From: Eledone cirrhosa
Taxonomy: Eukaryota
Length of the DNA stretch: 64,000 nucleotides
Direction: 5' to 3'
Assembly (NCBI GenBank): GCA_964016885.1
Contig: OZ024742.1
Location: 118,048,001 to 118,112,000, forward strand
Shown: piece by piece, positions 4,625 through 63,754 of the stretch
Position numbering within the stretch: position 1 is the first letter of the stretch
Layout of the letters: each line of letters begins with the position of its first letter
Notes under the pieces: generated by a model
The model's database searches: none
Seen by the model: the letters and a program-made list of their open reading frames with translations, nothing else
What the model was told of the DNA's origin: nothing
Program-made: the position numbers and the translations under genes

Positions 4625-4675
<51 letters not shown>

Positions 4676-5310
4676 AGGATGAATATAAAATGAAAGTGCT
4701 TTTTTTAAAAAGGAATTTATTAGGTATTGACATATGTTTCTGTAACAGACGGAATACCTATGTATCGCTGCTTGCGTAATCATATAATGTTAGCAAGTAT
4801 TCGATAGCAAATGTATAATCAGTTGTCACTTCTTCAGAGATTTTGGATAAATTGGATAAAATCAGAAAAATTGAAGTATTTATATTAGTAATAGAGGAAG
4901 AAAAAGAGGGAATAGTATATGACAGATGGTAAATTAATTTACTGCTAAACAAGTATATAATGGGTTTCTAATGAGAATACCATGAGTAAATCTAAATAAG
5001 AATTTTGGGAGTGCCAATTTTAATCTCTACTTGACCAATTGGACAGTGGACAGGGCTGGTCATTTGGTGCAGTAGTATTAATTATAAAGTGTCAATTGGG
5101 GAAGGGGGAGATTTCGATTGCTACTAAATAACATCAATGCTAGTAGCCAGCTGGTATATGCATTAGGGAATTGAATCAAGAAATCAAAAATCTCATTTTA
5201 TCTATAGCAGTTTATATTAAAAGGTAAATAATAGAAGAGTTGATAGAATTAAGACTAATAAAGAATGTTAATATCTATTTTGACAATCAAACGGAGATAG
5301 AGACAGGCGT

Positions 5311-6260
5311 TCAATCCTGGTAGTATTTATAATATGAAAATATAGATTTTAAGCGATGGTTACAGTATAACGATCGCTCTATTTTGTTATTTAATAAAAT
5401 GTTTTGGGATTTCATAATACAAAATAATTCTACATTACATAATTTACAAAATTCCTGTCCATGGGTAATGGGGGGGGGGGCAGCCGCTATTATATCCCAT
5501 TTTAGGTGAAATTGTTGGTTATTTTCACGCAGCTGCCAAGCCTTGTCTGCGAGTGTTGTTACATAACGCTGGTTTTCATGTTTTATCGAGTAACGATGTC
5601 TATAAAGGCGTGATTTGAAGGAGGTGGCTGTAGATCCCACATAGTACCACTTCTGTCTATCCGATTCGATAGTACATTTGTATACGATGTTGCGTTCAAG
5701 ACACTGATTGTTCAACGGACACATTCCTGGTTAGACACAGTTGCAATTAGAATTTTGCGTTGTTGTATTGCCATGGATGGGTTGATGAGGTTGCTTATGT
5801 AGGACAGGATGTTGTTTGTTGTTTTGTGATGTTATAGCTAATGTTTTACGTGTATTGTTATGTGTTGGAAGGCGTTTATACAACCGTTTTGCGTTAAGCT
5901 TTTTTATATGTTGTTCAATATTAGGGGCGGTTGAATATGAAAGTCGAATAGTGTTAGGGTTTAAGATTTTATTATATTTATGTGATGTTGGAAAGTGTTT
6001 TTTAACTAATCGAAAGAATTTTGAGGGTAGATTGATTTTAATAGAGTTGTTATAGACCGGGTTGTACCAAATATACTCCTTACATCGCCTTCTGTTTGGT
6101 GGTGTGCGACTATTATTGTGTCTATTGCGGTAGTGTATGTATGGTGGTGATTCTGTGCTATTTCTACTCCTATGGGATTTATTTTGGGTGTTTTGGTGAT
6201 CTTCGACTATATACTCTATATTATCTAGGTGACCGACTTTCCTAAGTGCATCATCATAAC
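5311..6260 (-). pseudogene. PLE RT-thumb/linker + GIY-YIG endonuclease (family A, left arm), one in-frame TAA
   Basis: IWYNP..KHFP..KILNPNTIRLSYS; CNC-x4-CPL-x3-C; IVYKC..YVGST..FKSRLYRH; CKLC..E..N..CNH. The stop at 5731-5733 is CAA in the right arm. Confidence 0.9.
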
Positions 6261-6262
6261 AT

Positions 6263-7055
6263 CCACCAAACAGAAGGCGATGTAAGGAGTATATTTGGTA
6301 CAACCCGGTCTATAACAACTCTATTAAAACCAATCTACCCTCAAAATTCTTTCGATTAGTTAAAAAACACTTTCCAACATCACATAAATATAATAAAATC
6401 TTAAACCCTAACACTATTCGACTTTCATATTCAACCGCCCCTAATATTGAACAACATATAAAAAAGCTTAACGCAAAACGGTTGTATAAACGCCTTCCAA
6501 CACATAACAATACACGTAAAACATTAGCTATAACATCACAAAACAACAAACAACATCCTGTCCTACATAAGCAACCTCATCAACCCATCCATGGCAATAC
6601 AACAACGCAAAATTATAATTGCAACTGTGTCCAACCAGGAATGTGTCCGTTGAACAATCAGTGTCTTGAACGCAACATCGTATACAAATGTACTATCGAA
6701 TCGGATAGACAGAAGTGGTACTATGTGGGATCTACAGCCACCTCCTTCAAATCACGCCTTTATAGACATCGTTACTCGATAAAACATGAAAACCAGCGTT
6801 ATGTAACAACACTCGCAGACAAGGCTTGGCAGCTGCGTGAAAATAACCAACAATTTCACCTAAAATGGGATATAATAGCGGCTGCCCCCCCCCCCCCATT
6901 ACCCATGGACAGGAATTTTGTAAATTATGTAATGTAGAATTATTTTGTATTATGAAATCCAAAACATTTTATTAAATAACAAAATAGAGCGATCGTTATA
7001 CTGTAACCATCGCTTAAAATCTACATTTTCATATTATAAATACTACCAGGATTGA
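6263..7055 (+). pseudogene. PLE linker + GIY-YIG endonuclease (family A, right arm), frameshift in poly-C
   Basis: ORF 6482-6937 encodes the same protein as the left arm until the C-run at ~6885-6897. Confidence 0.88.
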
Positions 7056-7525
7056 ACGCCTGTCTCTATCTCTGTTTGATTGTCAAAATAGATATTAACA
7101 TTCTTTATTAGTCTTAATTCTATCAACTCTTCTATTATTTACCTTTTAATATAAACTGCTATAGATAAAATGAGATTTCTGATTTCTTGATTCAATTCCC
7201 TAATGCATATACCAGCTGGCTACTAGCATTGATGTTATTTAGTAGCAATCGAAATCTCCCCCTTCCCCAATTGACACTTTATAATTAATACTACTGCACC
7301 AAATGACCAGCCCTGTCCACTGTCCAATTGGTCAAGTAGAGATTAAAATTGGCACTCCCAAAATTCTTATTTAGATTTACTCATGGTATTCTCATTAGAA
7401 ACCCATTATATACTTGTTTAGCAGTAAATTAATTTACCATCTATCATATACTATCCCCTCTTTTTCTTCCTCTATTACTAATATAAATACTTCAATTTTT
7501 CTGATTTTATCCAATTTATCCAAAA

Positions 7526-7640
7526 TCTCTGAAGAAGTGACAACTGATTATACATTTGCTATCGAATACTTGCTAACATTATATGATTACGCAAGCAGCG
7601 ATACATAGGTATTCCGTCTGTTACAGAAACATATGTCAAT
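7526..7640 (+). ncRNA. Degenerate type I hammerhead-like motif with long stem II (family A pLTR); mirror at 4726-4840(-)
   Basis: CTGAAGA at 7529; stem II GTGACA/TGTTAC enclosing ~75 nt; GAAAC-ATAT-GTC with a palindromic stem III; stem I pairs poorly. Confidence 0.55.
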
Positions 7641-7797
7641 ACCTAATAAATTCCTTTTAAAAAAAAGCACTTTCATTTTATATTCATCCTTTCTACATTT
7701 TCTCCGGAATATAATTTATACTCGTTGAGCAAACCTGCACGTACGCTGTTCATCTCTAACGTAACGATATATTATCACTACATTACTGATAACCTGA

Positions 7798-7854
<57 letters not shown>

Positions 7855-7859
<5 letters not shown>

Positions 7860-9073
7860 GTGGTTACACAACAGTTAGTTCACCATACCGAGAACAATTG
7901 TTTCACCTTAGCAGATCCTCAGCTCGTAATGGACATGGTTATACGGAACAGGAAGGACAACCGTACGAACGCGCATGCGCAGAAACGGTCACTTCACACA
8001 CGCAATACTAAATTGCGTGCGAGAGGTGTAAGAGAGATAACTGCGAAAGTTCGAAAGTTTCTGGTTGATAAGAAAATTAGGATGATGTTGTAATTCAATC
8101 CGGAGCAACGTGTGAAGAATTCATTCCTCGTGTTTAGGCAATCACTATTGCGTAATCTCTTTAGAATATTTATTCGTTCATCAATACATAGTCCACACGA
8201 CGGATTGCCCCTTCCGTATGGCTTGGACTTAGTGATGGCTTTCCATTCAATGGAGTAGTCTATACTTGAGTCCTTGAGGGACCATACCTGGCTCGAGAGT
8301 TTCGTGGATGAACGTCTGTCCGGGTACTTAAACGTCGATTGGTGGTTCAGGAAGCGTTCCTTAAATTGGCCCTCCGCCATACACACATAGGATTTGACCT
8401 CCTGTGGTAGATTTGGTCGTTTAGAAGTGACCACAGCTTCATAAACTACAGCGGGTGTGTTGCATTGCTGTTGAAGGGGACAAGCTTAGGGCTTACGACA
8501 AGAGCACCCTGGTGGGGTTCTGCTCTTAGAGCTGTTGGTGATGTGGGCCTTCATGTTCTTAGCACATGAGTATCCTAGTTTTACTTTGTGTCAGTTAAAG
8601 ATGGAGCGGTATTTATGACCTATGGGAAAGTGTCTATCTAAGAGGGCTAGGCATTTTTTGCCTACATTGGTTTAACGTTGAGTGAGAAGGGAGGAGAGAA
8701 CCAGATAGTTTGTCTATTGTTACGTTTTCTTTTCTTATTGCTGTTGTTGTTAACTACAAAGCTCCGGATTGAATTACAACAACATCCTAATTTTCTTATC
8801 AACCAGAAACTTTCGAACTTTCGCAGTTATCTCCCTTACACCTCTCGCACGCAACTTAGTATTACCTGTGTGAAGTGATCGTTTCTGCGCATGCGCGTTC
8901 GTACGGTTGTCCTTCCTGTTCCGTATAACCATGTCCATTACGAGCTGAGGATCCGCTAAGGTGAAACAATTGTTCTCGGTATGGTGAACTAACTGTTGTG
9001 TAACCACTTCTACCTAACTCGTCCCATGGACTGAGTGCTCTACCACTACGGATACTACCTTCCAGTGTTCTAC

Positions 9074-9076
<3 letters not shown>
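7855..9076. mobile_element. Penelope-like element family B copy 1 (Naiad-type), foldback insertion in (TA)n
   Basis: 7855-8106 mirrors 8761-9012; tail 9013-9076. The minus strand encodes IWFSPPFS..HFP..KLGYSC..CSCRKP*ACPL..VYEA..FKERFLNH..CGLC..E..LNTRNE. Confidence 0.92.
8935..8984 (+). ncRNA. Minimal type I hammerhead ribozyme (family B pLTR); mirror at ~7884-7933(-)
   Basis: Stem I CCAT..CGAG/CTCG..ATGG; core CTGAGGA; stem II T-CC-GCTAA-GG-T; GAAAC-AATT-GTT (palindromic stem III, GUU site after 8974). Confidence 0.8.
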
Positions 9077-9171
<95 letters not shown>

Positions 9172-12328: not shown

Positions 12329-12589
12329 TTTTATATATTTTTTATGTGTATTTGGTGTATACGTTCGTATGTGTGCGGGTACAGGCGTTGCGTGGGTTGT
12401 GTATGTGTGTGCGTGTTTTTTGTGTGCGTGCTTGTATTTGCATACCCATTGCGGGTGTTTTCGCGTATGCTTGTGTGTGTACGTATATGGATGTGTGTAT
12501 GTATATATTTAATTTCAATTACCTCTGTAATTTATTTACTTTATTCTTAACTCTGAAGCCGAGAATCATCCGGTTTCCTAAATAGAATT

Positions 12590-13013
12590 TTACTCTACGA
12601 CTTCAGTTATACCATATACGTGGTTTTGTCTTAGCGTGTAATTGTTCTCACCGCTCCACATAATGACGTATTATCTTCGTGTTTTCCGTTCATCGCCAGA
12701 GAACGTCTTCATGAACCACCTAAGAGAATATTAGTCTACGACTTCATTTATACCATAAACGTGGTTTTGTCTTTGCGTGTAATTGTTTTTCACCGCTCCA
12801 AATAATGACGTATTATCTTCGTTTTTTTCCGTTCTTTGCCAGGGAACGTTTCCACGAACCAAAGTATCGTCTTCCTGTCTTCCTTCGGTTGCAAAGTTTT
12901 TTTGAAATATTTACTTCTGCGTTCACAGATTGATTTTTTTAGTTTCAGAAGATCCCGTTAAGGGTGAAAGCAGCGATTATCTGCTTAAACTTTAATCTGT
13001 TATTTTAATAAAT
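12590..13013 (+). mobile_element. Family D element with an internal ~140-bp tandem subrepeat
   Basis: ~12595-12720 and ~12736-12860 are diverged repeats; 12736-13013 is homologous to 135-413; ends TTTTAATAAATA|(TA)n. Confidence 0.8.
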
Positions 13014-13033
13014 ATATATATATATATGTATAA

Positions 13034-13129
<96 letters not shown>

Positions 13130-13291
13130 CGTTGAATAATGCTGCTAATTTTAGTGGCAACTCGACATGTTTATAATATCCAGCTTTTATCAGCGACCTG
13201 ATTTGCGTGTGTGTCACTTTAACGGCTTGACCGCATGCGTTGGGCAGGGAGCATAATATTTACTTGCTATACCTTATAGCGTGGAAATAGG

Positions 13292-13372
13292 GCTGTCTGA
13301 AGATTCATTTCTTTCCATTGGAAATTCGTTGGATTTCCAATCTTTCGGAATGATGAAACCGTCGGTAACAGC
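13292..13372 (+). ncRNA. Type I hammerhead ribozyme
   Basis: Stem I GCTGT/ACAGC; CTGAAGA; stem II TCATT/AATGA extended by ATTGGAAAT/ATTTCCAAT; GAA; stem III ACC/GGT around GTC; GUA site after 13367. Confidence 0.88.
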
Positions 13373-13748
13373 ATCTGAACAGGTGATTATTTAATCATTT
13401 TTTAATTTATTTAGAAAATTGTTTAATAACCGTTTGTTTCGCTACTTTTATATTGTTCTGGTATCTCGAATTAGTGCCATTGAACCACATGTATTATAAA
13501 GAACTTGAATATTTCTACAAGTACATTGTACCTGTTGAAGTATCCATCCACTTCTATAATTTATTCTCCTTACGTAGAGAACAAAACGTTGAATAATGCT
13601 GCTAATTTTAGTGGCAATTCGACATGTTTATAATATCCAGCTTTTATCAGCGACCTGATTTGCGTGTGTGTCACTTTAACGGCTTGACCGCATGCGTTGG
13701 GCAGGGAGCATAATATTTACTTGCTATACCTTATAGCGTGGAAATAGG

Positions 13749-13829
13749 GCTGTCTGAAGATTCATTTCTTTCCATTGGAAATTCGTTGGATTTCCAATCT
13801 TTCGGAATGATGAAACCGTCGGTAACAGC
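13749..13829 (+). ncRNA. Type I hammerhead ribozyme, second tandem copy
   Basis: Same sequence as 13292-13372; predicted cleavage after 13824. Confidence 0.88.
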
Positions 13830-13901
13830 ATCTGAACAGGTGATTATTTAATCATTTTTTAATTTATTTAGAAAATTGTTTAATAACCGTTTGTTTCGCT
13901 A

Positions 13902-13983
<82 letters not shown>

Positions 13984-14498
13984 TTAGTTAAGCAAAACAA
14001 GACCACAAATTTCACAAGGAAGACATTATTAAAAGATTGTCAACATATTTAGTTTGATGTAAGGAATGTAGAGAATAATAATAATAATAATATAAATAAT
14101 AATAATGCCCGTTTACAATTGTTTCGCTACTCTGTATAATATTTCTGGATCAGATGACTATGTATCATAATTGATCTGGTTCAGTTGAAAATAATTAACA
14201 TATTTAAAAAAACTGAGTGGCTCATCGGAACTCAAAGGAATATAAATTAAAATAATGTTACATAATACAATGTTCCATATATTAGTTTTTACTATTGTGC
14301 CTTTGTTTCATCAGCTGTCAGCCATAATCAAGCAGTACTCATCTGTCGAGGCTGCATTGTGTGAGATCTGCCTATGGGTAACAAGATGGCTGCCAAAGGG
14401 CATATTTACCTTACCTATTAGAGGGTGGTTTCAGGGGAAGTAACTTCTCAAGAGATTAGAGATTGTGTGTATTTTATAGTTATGTGCTAGTATTTAAA

Positions 14499-16472
14499 TT
14501 ATTTAATTGAGAGACAATGTAGGGGAAGTAACTTATAATTATCGAGTTGTTCATAGCAATTTAACTTATTAGCTACAATTAGAGATGGGGCTACATGACT
14601 AAGTTGGGTCAAAAAAACTCTATTGGCGAAGGAATTAGCCCTTCGATGTTGACAGCTAATGGTTACCTCCGTTCTATCGTTAATTGGTAGAGGTTTTGAT
14701 AGAGTTATGTAATATGCTTCCGTAACGCAGAGATCACAAGATTTCCTTCGTCCATTGAACGGTTGGGCCCTAGCTACGATATCCCATCTTAGTGAGTGTT
14801 GAACTTTGTTTAATTTAAGGTTTTTAATAAGCCTAGCTAGCGATGTCGAACATCTGTTGCTCGGGTCTCGGAAGGAAAAAGAGTGCGCGTTATAGCGTAC
14901 CTTAAAAGGGTTAGAGGTAGATCCGATATAAGAGCTGGTATTCGAAGCAGTCTCAACTGTGCACCTATAGACTATGTTGGGTGTCAGGCAGTGTCCATTT
15001 AATGGGCATGCATTGGGGTACCGGCAGTTGCAGTTGCTTCTGCGGTTAGTTATAGTAGGGTTATTTAACCTAAGCAGTTGGTCCATGCTAGAAGGATTAG
15101 ATGGAGGAGGTGTGCTACTAGAGTAATTATTAGTGTAGAGGCTGGGTGTATTTGATAGGGGTGGTGGTACCGCGGTGTGGGAGTTATAGTGTCTTAGCTT
15201 ATGATGGTTACTGAACGCGATGTGGCTAGCTAGGTTAGGTGTAGTGGAGAATGAGATTTTAATGTTGTTTTTATTAAAGAGTTTGTAATATCTATGCTAA
15301 GGGGGGAAGTGTTTGGATAGGATAGAGAAGAAGCGATTGGGGATATTAATGGCTAGATTAGATGAGAATGGTAGGTTAAGCCAGGTGATATTTCTAGGCC
15401 TATTCCTTCTAGGGGTTCTAGTGGAGTTGGTAGGGGCCTTCCTAGGGTTATTATTACCTGGGGGTTTGTTATTTGTCATCCCATTTCTCATTCCTATTCT
15501 AGGGTTGATTCTAAGTTTGCTACTAGGAGTGGGGAGCAGGCCGCTTCCACCATTAAAGTTCCCTGTATAGGTGCTGTTACTGCTAAAATTCCGGCGAACC
15601 TGGTTATATGCTAAGGTATTTCTAGTTCTAGTGTTAAGTTTATTATGGTGAGTTGCTGTGTTATGGCATTTTGGTATGTAATAAATTGATTGTTTATAAC
15701 CAGATTCAGAGAGAGCCTTATTATAATAATGTGCGTGGTTTATAAATATCTCTTCATTTGCTGATAGCATTGAGATCCTATAGGAGATAGATTTGATTAC
15801 TGCTCTGATGACTGCCGGTGGGTGGTTAGAGTGTGGGCTAATATATGTGAGTATTTCGCCTGGTTTATGGTAAGGGTTATAAAGGTTATTGTTGAGATCA
15901 AGGGTGACGTCTAGGAAGTTTACTACTTTATGGTTCAGCTCGATGGTGATAGAGAGACTGTTATTTTTGAAGAATCTATGAAATTGTTTCTTAAGCAAAT
16001 CGATTCCCCGATTAGTGCAATTGTGGACTGCAAATAGGGCGTCGTCCCTGTATATTCCACCTTGCATGGGTTGGATTTCGGCTCTGATGTTACGTAATAG
16101 GTAAATCCCAACTAAATCGGTGACTTGCGCGGAATCACTTGAACCCATCGTAATGTCAAAGTTATCTGTTCTATCTTTTCTAGTCCAGAGTGCTCCGTTG
16201 AATTCAATGATAGTCTGCCTAGCCATGAGTGTGATGTTAATCTCATTATTGGTTATGTCCGAGTTGGTGGTTGCTAGGGCTAGTGCTTTGTTGAGCAGTT
16301 CCGGGGTTATTGACGCATAATAGCTGTCTATATCAAATTGGATGAACCTCATAGATTGCTTGGACCTTAGATCGGAGAACCATCTGATGACTTGGCCGGT
16401 GTTGGACCACCTCTTGTAGGTGATATCATCCCGTAGCCCAGGGATTATCCTATCAAGGATGCTCTTACTGAT
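14499..16472 (-). pseudogene. PLE reverse transcriptase + GIY-YIG endonuclease, 5'-truncated, single in-frame TAG
   Basis: FIQFDIDSYY, TMGSSDSAQV, YRDD, VNFLDVTLDL, SNHPP; then CNC..CPLNGHCL, IVYRC..YIGST, CDLC..E..CQH. ORFs 15297-16499 and 14499-15086 share a frame across the TAG at 15297-15299. Confidence 0.93.
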
Positions 16473-17825
16473 TCGCCGGAATTTTAGCAGTAACAGCACC
16501 TATACAGGGAACTTTAATGGTGGCAGCGGCCTGCTCCCCACTCCTAGTAACAAACTTAGAATCAACCCTAGAATAGGAATGAGAAATGGGATGACAAATA
16601 ACAAACCCCCAGGTAATAATAACACTAGGAAGGCCCCTACCAACTCCACTAGAACCCCTAGAAGGAATAGGCCTAGAAATATCACCTGGCTTAACCTATC
16701 GTTCTCATCTAATCTAGCCACTAATATCCCCAATCGCTTCTTCTCTATCCTATCCAAACACTTCCACCCTTAGCATAGATATTACAAACTCTTTAATAAA
16801 AACAACATTAAAATCTCATTCTCCACTACACCTAACCTAGCTAGCCACATCGCGTTCAGTAACCATCATAAGCTAAGACAATATAACTCCCACGCCGCGG
16901 TACCACCACCCCTATCAAATACACCACGCCACTACACCAATAATTACTCTAGTAGCACACCTCCCCCATCTAATCCTTCTAGCTTAGGTTAAATAACCCT
17001 ACTATCACTAACCGCAGAAGCAACTGCAACTGCCGGTACCCCAATGCATGCCCATTAAATGGACACTGCCTGACACCCAACATAGTCTATAGGTGCACAG
17101 TTGAGACTGCTTCGAATACCAGCTCTTATATCGGATCTATCTCTAACCCTTTTAAGGTACGCTATAACGCGCAGTCTTTTTCCTTCCGAGACCCTAGCAA
17201 CAGATGTTCGACATCGCTAGCTAGGCTTATTAAAAACCTTAAATTAAACAAAGTTCAACACTCACTAAAATGGGATATCGTAGCTAGGGCCCAACCGTTC
17301 AATGGACGAAGGAAATCTTGTGATCTCTGCGTTACGGAAGCATATTACATAACTCTATCAAAACCTCTACCAATTAACGATAGAACGGAGGTAACCATTA
17401 GCTGTCAACATCGAAGGGCTAATTCCTTCGCCAATAGAGTTTTTTTGACCCAACTTAGTCATGTAGCCCCATCTCTAATTGTAGCTAATAAGTTAAATTG
17501 CTATGAACAACTCGATAATTATAAGTTACTTCCCCTACATTGTCTCTCAATTAAATAATTTAAATACTAGCACATAACTATAAAATACACACAATCTCTA
17601 ATCTCTTGAGAAGTTACTTCCCCTGAAACCACCCTCTAATAGGTAAGGTAAATATGCCCTTTGGCAGCCATCTTGTTACCCATAGGCAGATCTCACACAA
17701 TGCAGCCTCGACAGATGAGTACTGCTTGATTATGGCTGACAGCTGATGGAACAAAGGCACAATAGTAAAAACTAATATATGGAACATTATATTATGTAAC
17801 ATTATTTTAATTTATATTCCTTTGA

Positions 17826-17946
17826 GTTCCGATGAGCCACTCTGTTTTTTTAAATATGTTAATTATTTTCAACTGAACCAGATCAATTATGATACATAGT
17901 CATCTGATCCAGAAATATTATACGGAGTAGCGAAACAATTGTAAAC
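17826..17946 (+). ncRNA. Type I hammerhead variant (CCGAUGA core) with ~75-nt stem II insert; mirror at 14111-14231(-)
   Basis: Stem I GTT/AAC; CCGATGA; stem II GCCACTCTGT/ACGGAGTAGC with a nested CAGAT/ATCTG hairpin; GAAAC-AATT-GTA. Confidence 0.7.
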
Positions 17947-18292
17947 GGGCATTATTATTATTAATATTATTATTATTATTATTATTCTCTACATTCCTTA
18001 CATCAAACTAAATATGTTGACAATCTTTTAATAATGTCTTCCTTGTGAAATTTGTGGTCTTGTTTTGCTTAACTAATGAATATTTCCAGCTCTGCGCACC
18101 TAACCTCTGCATGAACCCAGCCACCTAGCTGCTTTATACTGCATATTGCACATTGAGCACATGCCTTTACGCTTTGGCTTCTAACTAACTCACCAATCTT
18201 TCCTCTCATATCTCCTCTACTATTTCAATCTCTCTCTTTAAGATTGGTTACTCTTGAACTATGTATATATATATATATGTATGTATGTATAT

Positions 18293-18497
18293 ATATAATA
18301 TAGAAATGGCTTCTACAGGACTAGACTGTTTCATTCGAAGGAAATCATCAGGAAAGCCATACAAGAAAGCTTTCCTGATGATTTCCTTCGAATGAAACAG
18401 TTCTAGTCCTGTAAAAGCCATCTCTATATTGAATATTTATACTCTGCTATGTATTTCGGACCTTACTGTGGTTACGCCCGATTGAACCCGGGATATA
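18293..18497. mobile_element. Miniature hammerhead foldback element, family F copy 1
   Basis: ~18297-18358 mirrors ~18369-18430; tail to ~18497; homologous to 62631-62820; TA-rich flanks. Confidence 0.88.
18369..18418 (+). ncRNA. Type I hammerhead ribozyme (family F)
   Basis: GCTTTC; CTGATGA; stem II T-TTC-CTTC-GAA-T; GAA; stem III ACAG/CTGT; GUA site after 18413; (G/A)AAGC. Confidence 0.78.
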
Positions 18498-22645: not shown

Positions 22646-22703
22646 CTTTATGCTCTGATGAGTCCCACTTATAGTGTGGACGAAACACTGTTAGCAATTA
22701 AAG
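22646..22703 (+). ncRNA. Type I hammerhead ribozyme (family G, solitary)
   Basis: Stem I CTTTA-TGCT/AGCA-at-TAAAG; CTGATGA; stem II GTCC-CAC-ttata-GTG-t-GGAC; GAAAC-ACT-GTT; ~130-nt tail, then TA repeats at ~22828. Confidence 0.82.
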
Positions 22704-62506: not shown

Positions 62507-62820
<314 letters not shown>

Positions 62821-63035
62821 CACACACACAAATATGTATATATCATCGCGATGTTGGTATATTGTTGTTGTTCAACCCCAGGTCATTCCAAATTCGGTAG
62901 ACCTATAGTAAAGTACAACCCAGCCTTGATTATCTCGTCTTATATTGTACCGAGAACTATGTACTGAGAACTATATTATTCAACGTGTCATTTAAAAAAA
63001 CTGTGGAACGTGATATACTGCTATTTCTAGTAGGT

Positions 63036-63613
63036 CAATCCCTTACGTTATTTCGATATTTGTTCAATCCCTTACGTTATTTCGGTATTTGTTCAATCCC
63101 TTACGTTATTTCGATATTTGTTCAATCCCTTACGTTATTTCGGTATTTGTTCAATCCCTTACGTTATTTCGGTATTTGTTCAATCCCTTACGTTATTTCG
63201 GTATTTGTTCAATCCCTTACGTTATTTCGATATTTGTTCAATCCCTTACGTTATTTCGGTATTTGTTCAATCCTTTACGTTATTCCGGTATTTGTTCAAT
63301 CCCGTACGTTATTTCGATATTTGTTCAATCCCTTACGTTATTTCGGTATTTGTTCAATCCCTTACGTTATTTCGGTATTTGTTCAATCCCGTACGTTATT
63401 TCGATATTTGTTCAATCCCTTACGTTATTTCGGTATTTGTTCAATCCCGTACGTTATTTCGATATTTGTTCAATCCCTTACGTTATTTCGGTATTTGTTC
63501 AATCCCTTACGTTATTTCGGTATTTGTTCAATCCCTTACGTTATTTCGGTATTTGTTCAATCCCTTACGTTATTTCGGTATTTGTTCAATCCCTTACGTT
63601 ATTTCGGTATTTG
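63036..63613 (+). repeat. 29-bp minisatellite, ~20 copies (CAATCCCTTACGTTATTTCGGTATTTGTT)
   Basis: Head-to-tail units with no spacers; variants mainly TCGG/TCGA and CCTT/CCGT. Confidence 0.97.
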
Positions 63614-63754
63614 TAATCGTATTTCGTTTGTCATTGAATTAAATTTCTCCCGAAGTGAAATTCATCGTCGTTTTGCAATGTAAGGCACAACTGGTTAAAT
63701 ATACAGTATTTGCTATGCAATGACCTGCAGAGATACTGCGATAAAATATTGGTT

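Follow-up and report, generated by a model that had tools for sequence, protein, structure and literature searches.

The window, the whole 64,000-nt stretch of Eledone cirrhosa DNA analysed here, carries at positions 13128–13910 (plus strand) a single-armed insertion of a 457-nt repeat, amounting to 1.71 units (783 nt). Its first unit spans 13128–13584, with unit position 1 at 13128, and is followed by a partial second unit (13585–13910, unit positions 1–326). Alignment of 13128–13453 with 13585–13910 gave a period of 457 nt with 325 of 326 positions identical, the sole mismatch (13161) lying outside the ribozyme. The insertion is 5′-truncated at 13128, ends 3′ at a start site that we call A, and is bordered on both sides by (TA)n target tracts (13008–13127 and 13911–13980). 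The unit has a GC content of 35% and, read as a circle, no ATG frame longer than 35 aa on either strand. The 457-nt tandem, its location in (TA)n and its non-coding nature, all proposed in an initial annotation of this DNA, were thus confirmed.

Each copy of the ribozyme reads GCUGU CUGAAGA, a 51-nt stem II, GAAA, stem III ACCGUCGGU, A17 and ACAGC, and H17 could be located at both GUA sites named in that annotation (13367 and 13824). The first type I hammerhead (13292–13372, plus strand; predicted cut after 13367) comprises a 5-bp stem I (13292–13296/13368–13372), the CUGAAGA core (13297–13303), the long stem II (13304–13354), GAAA (13355–13358) and a palindromic stem III (13358–13366); the second (13749–13829, plus strand) is identical to it, with a predicted cut after 13824. 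A strict motif scan found two matches in the window, both in the repeat; 200 shuffled windows averaged 0.005. No hammerhead family was listed among the 52 Rfam matches at E≤1, for which the long stem II is the probable reason; the microRNA matches of the same scan were rejected as AT/AC microsatellites.

The two hammerheads had been described as fully formable. Their pairing and identity stand, but stem II starts with a U-U mismatch, the loop of stem III is only 3 nt long, and the hammerhead fold (−24.6 kcal/mol) lies about 5 kcal/mol above the free, inactive minimum-energy fold (−29.5 kcal/mol). On the variant-free circle the active fold was predicted at −111.8 against −118.1 kcal/mol. Stem III is favoured as a self-duplex (−11.3 kcal/mol) over a hairpin (+0.4 kcal/mol), and a double hammerhead is therefore likely: the ribozyme would be marginal as a monomer and would likely pair with a second one through the stem III palindrome. 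A double hammerhead is described for axolotl retrozymes in the available text of PMC7229834.

The 457-nt monomer predicted between the cut sites (13368–13824, plus strand) would fold as a highly self-paired circle (−111.6 kcal/mol, z −4.35), none of 100 shuffles reaching so low an energy. The minus-strand circle (−90.4 kcal/mol) resembled its shuffles, and the motif scan found no hammerhead on the minus strand of the unit. Among 39 differences from an older subfamily, only 4 disrupt base pairs predicted with confidence for the young circle, from the young sequence alone, versus 12.8 expected (0 of 5000 randomisations as low), which argues for selection on the predicted circle fold. A 487-nt contig (one period plus 30) in one sequencing run was rejected as evidence of a circle, as a tandem DNA array gives the same.

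Distribution and insertion ends of the family

A ribozyme 22-mer had 326 exact matches in the 3.0-Gb genome and its reversed control none. Searching with the 457-nt unit gave at least 177 matches, from the best 38 of 1,656 candidates, and a query with the 3′ half gave 766 hammerhead matches at one mismatch. We took 97 stretches around matches, choosing those with the highest scores and those listed first for contigs C1 and C2; such a sample is not random and favours long, young arrays. Insertions had to reach 100 nt, which removed five of the final 20 stretches; 93 insertions, the window copy included, were kept. They form three subfamilies with units of 457, 467 and about 468 nt and identity down to 82%. 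More than two units are present in 40/93 and more than three in 24/93; the largest two-armed array has 28.3 units (13 kb; contig C1) and the largest one-armed array 40.7 (19 kb).

Every long copy, in the young as well as the 82–95% subfamilies, wraps from unit position 457 to 1 without entering an ORF. Using four PLE (Penelope-like element) protein pieces from the window as queries, we found a PLE ORF on the same strand in the 1 kb upstream of one of 40 one-armed copies, and a TA tract intervenes there. The element therefore evolved as a protein-less unit. Neither of the sequence patterns that the initial annotation named as refuting its reading, copies always running on upstream into a PLE ORF and never having more than two units, was observed. 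Every feature of a non-LTR retrozyme that could be examined was found across the 93 insertions (one type I hammerhead per short non-coding unit, no LTR, dispersed dimers to multimers, GC below 50%), self-cleavage and the self-paired circular RNA being predicted. Our data thus support the assignment, already made in the initial annotation, of this young family of 457-nt hammerhead repeats to the non-LTR retrozymes. In young insertions the single-unit change rate is about 1 per 1,000 bases; the family being young, its insertions display their two-site and one-template signatures directly.

The insertions end at two sites. An internal copy of start site A, ending ...GCUACUUUUAUAU, lies at 13441–13453 (plus strand; unit position 326), is predicted to be single-stranded and is located 3′ to a hairpin (13387–13429); the copy used by the window insertion (13898–13910, plus strand) merges into (TA)n. 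Start site B, ending ...CCACUUCUAUA (13548–13558, plus strand; unit position 431), is predicted to be mostly single-stranded and is likewise 3′ to a hairpin (13506–13546). B follows A by 105 nt, the two being 86 (A) and 191 nt (B) past the cut site, and both end in TAT(A), which merges into the target. Among 145 outer ends, 71 were at A, 66 at B and 8 elsewhere, one of these 8 being the edge of a fetched stretch. Many insertions are arranged head to head with both 3′ ends outward. The 52 complete two-armed copies comprise 45 A+B, one A+A and 6 with another end, i.e. one site per arm in 45/46 scorable pairs (p=7e-13); the A+B combination recurred in 7/8 of the two-armed copies in loci fetched after the rule had been noticed and in 5/7 of a later set. 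Inner ends were evenly spread over the unit (KS p=0.21), with 6/146 within 5 nt of the cut site versus 3.5 expected, and 217 passes over the predicted cut site showed no indel.

A minor third end was observed near unit positions 279–290, in the AT-rich loop of the 261–312 hairpin (L059, L136, L143+L158+L159 and L214).

PLE-type insertions combine constant 3′ ends that carry a tail, 5′ ends that vary, an inverted 5′ copy and a microsatellite target. The copies examined here show this anatomy, which supports a PLE signature for the family, with two fixed ends, one per arm, in (TA)n; their ends agree with the tail described for PLEs in PMC8557442. A purified PLE protein from the anole has been found to cut both target strands and to extend them, and it initiates at two internal positions of the RNA, which set the genomic tail (PMC11167929).

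Penelope-like neighbours and a candidate helper

A two-armed PLE copy, separate from the retrozyme and with two ends about 108 nt apart, is located at 4668–7802. Many open 781-aa frames of its family were present among the best 150 of 58,389 candidates; an intact ORF lies, for example, in the region of C3:316,597,086. The intact frame carries RWK, DKT, a CxCx5C linker, CxxC/CxH around E and N and a C-terminal endonuclease, and the target is (TA)n; these motifs, read against the available part of a published description (PMC8557442), indicate a Hydra-clade PLE. The rule of one start site per arm also holds in this autonomous family of the same genome, where one end type per arm was found in 11/13 scorable pairs (15 fetched). 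Target, end spacing and intact ORFs are the three points on which the Hydra-clade family may be nominated as candidate helper.

The enzyme had been supposed to be a Naiad-type RT. Naiads have an N-terminal GIY-YIG and no canonical hammerhead, whereas the two window PLEs and L197 have the RT or linker first and the endonuclease last. With the Hydra-clade motifs and C-terminal endonuclease of the intact member, a Naiad helper is thus unlikely as judged from these elements, and this part of the annotation is not supported; cephalopod Naiads are described as old remnants in the accessible part of PMC8557442. Pfam barely recognises the window PLE proteins (GIY-YIG, E 0.08), and the closest named relatives of the neighbouring RT include sequences of Octopus sinensis (55% over half of the query) and Argonauta hians (47%).

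We also compared the unit with PLE 3′ UTRs, 853 TA-abutting ends and the intact Hydra-clade UTR, a set that took in a minority of the PLE families in the genome, and found no homology above shuffles except for a single 28-nt match. It joins the Hydra-clade UTR to site B, was noticed after the fact and was equalled in 8/2000 shuffles. Other leads were rejected: look-alike motifs shared with the PLE at 7855–9090 were not significant (223/1000 shuffles), a 13-nt match to the 3′ end of the adjacent PLE (E 9.6) has the wrong strand for the insertion polarity, and no convincing chimeric arm was seen in 13 one-armed copies with non-TA 5′ flanks.

The annotation had further stated that the repeat ends like the adjacent PLEs; this holds for the copy at 4668–7802 but not for that at 14074–17983, which is two-armed, has a C-terminal endonuclease and carries an (ATT)n end on both sides. 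In the 3′ UTR of the latter, a motif resembling a hammerhead combines a CCGAUGA core with a loop II of about 100 nt and a stem III that is palindromic. The short, two-armed PLE end at 7855–9090 includes a minimal motif of hammerhead type. Its arms terminate in (TA)n at two different sites, spaced by about 68 nt, and the short end, CCACTTCTA, resembles retrozyme site B.

Other elements were observed in the window. Small copies at 18260–18420 and 62630–62830, with a hammerhead motif adjoining (TA)n, inverted arms and relatives in many fetched loci, possibly represent a second retrozyme or a PLE-end family. Another TA-abutting family (330–652 and 12520–13010) has two recurrent termini (13 + 13 in fetched loci) and internal 141-nt duplications, and its end shares a TA tract with the retrozyme. 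An isolated hammerhead-like motif with a CUGAUGA core lies at 22648–22700. The region 24125–54597 contains many broken LINE-type ORFs with, by eye, endonuclease-RT and RT-restriction-like endonuclease patterns, and 63035–63614 is a minisatellite (29-nt, 20 copies).

Array-fixed variants and the copied template

We analysed variants in 61 young insertions, where 23 distinct variants were fixed in all covering units of an array (array-fixed) and 78 were found in one unit. Fixation extended to both arms in 19 array-by-variant cases, against three records that involved a pair of units within a single arm. A search of the whole assembly for five of the array-fixed variants showed three to be private to one locus: 196G, carried by all 28 units of the two-armed giant, had 27/27 exact matches there, 412T had 10/10 and 158G 3/3 at their single loci. 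The source array of such private variants could be absent from the assembly, in another haplotype or individual. Of the remaining two, 252G is also found in one unit elsewhere, on a different background, and 393G at nine other loci, mostly of older subfamilies, in four of which only one of two covering units has it.

The two classes differed in their spectrum. On the ribozyme strand, A>G made up 12/23 array-fixed but 7/78 single-unit variants (Fisher p=2.4e-5), while T>C made up 2/23 and 15/78. Against the expectation from the single-unit rate, 12 array-fixed A>G were observed where 1.4 were expected, whereas the other transitions matched it (T>C 2 vs 3.0, G>A 2 vs 3.4, C>T 4 vs 2.0). The excess was first seen in 48 young insertions (10/17 array-fixed variants); the loci that followed contributed one A>G site not seen before, a recurrence of two A>G sites already known and two sites of other kinds, numbers too small to count as replication. 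A predicted paired A was affected at 11/12 sites, against 85/127 A overall (p=0.056). ADAR enzymes have neighbour-base preferences; the neighbours of the A>G sites lean toward them, not significantly (p 0.05–0.12).

A variant present in every unit arose before copying, so that its simplest origin would be an edited RNA template. On balance we lean toward A-to-I edited templates as the explanation of the excess. A live possibility, if one that we lean against, is that it arose from DNA hairpin hot spots or from selection for A-U to G-U changes that keep the fold; this is a sub-question within the model. Variant 393G perfects an inverted repeat and is unit-specific in the four older loci, 11 of the 12 sites would retain a G-U pair in a fold that tolerates such changes, array-fixed C>T also exceeds G>A (4 vs 2), and no long-term A>G excess separates young from older subfamilies (5 A>G, 8 T>C). 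Selection, however, removes variants and does not add them: it would not raise A>G so far above expectation with the other transitions left as expected.

The array-fixed variants equally bear on the template. Repeated copying of one monomer, without stop or scar, is what a ligated circle would give, and this reading is supported by the variants fixed in both arms, the seamless passage of the cut site and the lack of a 5′ pile-up there. The same observations agree with the annotation's proposal that the 1.7-mer of the window is a rolling-circle cDNA. Against a circle stands the hammerhead fold, which is not that of minimum energy; of nine Xenopus retrozyme dimers one was cleaved in vitro, according to the available part of 10.64898/2026.07.22.740005.

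If no circle were involved, uncut linear multimer transcripts could have been inserted as a non-autonomous PLE-type tandem and later altered by unequal exchange, with the hammerhead as a passenger. Junctions without scars and an even spread of 5′ ends would be expected on this view as well. For the anole PLE, uncut RNA serves as the main substrate and the hammerhead is dispensable (PMC11167929), and local amplification by unequal crossover is proposed by Li et al. in the available text (10.64898/2026.07.22.740005). Within long arrays, duplication did occur: in that of 40.7 units a block of variants (35A + 455T) is repeated at units 31–33 and 37–40, and local duplication or assembly error therefore shaped it; other partial variants recur three units apart. 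We nevertheless consider this route unlikely. Exchange does not readily account for variants that are fixed in the two inverted arms and, within the assembly, private to one locus, and arrays of about 2 units already carry array-fixed variants in every covering piece (L067, L138, L139), which leaves little room for it. The 78 single-unit variants, compared with only 9 records (7 events) of partial variants, speak against much homogenisation. Finally, A>G changes made on a linear multimer RNA would be unit-specific, yet the excess is found among array-fixed variants.

Repeated jumping of the RT from the 5′ to the 3′ end of a cut linear monomer uses one monomer, so that it explains the array-fixed variants, and needs no ligase. 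Template jumping by non-LTR RTs often adds or removes bases, whereas the 217 junction passes are free of indels and no excess of 5′ ends marks the junction; we judge it very improbable. Hardly credible is the annotation's own alternative, a 5′-truncated partial tandem (pLTR) of an autonomous PLE, which would fit the target, tail and inverted arms shared with PLEs and the hammerhead-like motifs of window PLE UTRs but is largely refuted for the 93 insertions by the 457 to 1 wrapping of all long copies and the missing upstream ORF (39/40 one-armed copies, the remaining one separated by TA).

Further regularities were noted among the variants. For those confined to some units, a spacing of three units between recurrences was seen five times and one of two units not at all (L035, L072+L073, L143+L158+L159), a pattern that may reflect lesion-driven RT errors, local duplication or assembly. 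Variant 434G is scattered over 6/28 units in both arms of the C1 array. Single-unit variants comprise 32 T>C + G>A versus 17 A>G + C>T on the RNA strand, as RT wobble errors would give.

Proposed cycle and comparison with known systems

We propose that the retrozyme probably spread by means of a Penelope-like RT/endonuclease that copied the predicted RNA circle repeatedly, its ends being set at two fixed sites in (TA)n. The array would be transcribed and two hammerheads, probably paired through their palindromic stem III, would excise the 457-nt monomer, which would then be ligated. Carrying one ribozyme and a more stable inactive fold, the circle would resist re-cutting. A (TA)n-targeting PLE protein, most plausibly of the Hydra clade, would nick both strands, and the two DNA 3′ ends would prime on the RNA at different UAU(A) sites, A for one end and B for its partner, in keeping with the ends observed. 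Both cDNAs would run around the same monomer for 0.2 to many turns, with random stops, before being joined head to head, or a single arm would survive. The window copy would be such an arm, primed at site A (13910), extended for 1.71 turns and stopped at 13128. More speculatively, A-to-I edits on some templates would become fixed A>G in the new array, and long arrays may later be reshaped by local duplication.

A bolder formulation, which we hold tentatively although it is well within possibility, would make each array the DNA record of one circular RNA, a PLE RT dimer priming both strands at two different sites of the same circle and rolling round it, and A-to-I edits being written into the germ line.

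The kind of element is known; what appears new is genomic evidence on how retrozymes may move. We found no report of such footprints in the literature on retrozymes, RNA editing, rolling-circle copying and retrotransposition, where subscription papers or supplements could hold one. Retrozymes are known from many animals; as far as the available texts go, published models of their tandems are hypotheses that conflict, invoking rolling-circle cDNA (2020) or local unequal crossover (2026), with PLEs suspected. The PLE cycle gains a rule, one start site per arm, and both a 457-nt substrate and intact Hydra-clade ORFs are at hand for testing in vitro. Should editing account for the A>G excess, edited RNA was copied into the genome, and changes made in RNA would become heritable in DNA; should each array record one circle, the family would offer the natural equivalent of rolling-circle sequencing for the cycles of retrozymes and PLEs.

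The element resembles metazoan non-LTR retrozymes, as far as these are described in the available text of PMC7229834, in its short non-coding tandems with one type I hammerhead per unit, GC below 50%, dimers to multimers and a predicted, strongly self-paired circle. In the axolotl HHR_Amex2 of the same source, helix II likewise starts with a U-U, and the dimer is the more effective form. Our element differs from these retrozymes by a unit of 457–468 nt rather than 150–450, a 51-nt stem II and a strict (TA)n target; two-armed head-to-head insertions, two fixed ends and array-fixed variants are found here and are not described in that text. Expression and cleavage were demonstrated for those retrozymes and would be expected of ours. 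Tandem cDNA made by RT copying of primed circles was proposed there, with PLEs as candidates (Cervera and de la Pena 2020, PMC7229834). The retrozymes of Li, Clavereau and Pollet 2026 (10.64898/2026.07.22.740005) share the PLE link, co-occurrence with PLEs and a size range (51–972 bp) that includes our unit. In the part of that work available, the PLE link consists of co-occurrence and pLTR homology and local tandem amplification is favoured; here it consists of insertion anatomy, and no pLTR homology was found in the PLE ends and UTRs compared.

Hydra-clade PLEs, in the accessible text of Craig et al. 2021 (PMC8557442), have the (TA)n target, hammerheads and inverted 5′ copies seen here, but are autonomous elements, while the retrozyme is protein-less. 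The same text mentions non-autonomous, multicopy head-to-tail Chlamys elements (MRC1), Chlamys being mostly without canonical hammerheads. The anole PLE (Frangieh et al. 2024, PMC11167929), similarly, has two internal RNA starts that set its genomic ends, extends both strands and inserts into an AT-rich target. That element is autonomous, belongs to the Poseidon clade, and has a 30–40 bp tail and a start site not homologous to the target, whereas the retrozyme is a non-coding passenger whose ends pass into TA, whose two sites are 105 nt apart and whose arms use one site each in 45/46 scorable pairs.
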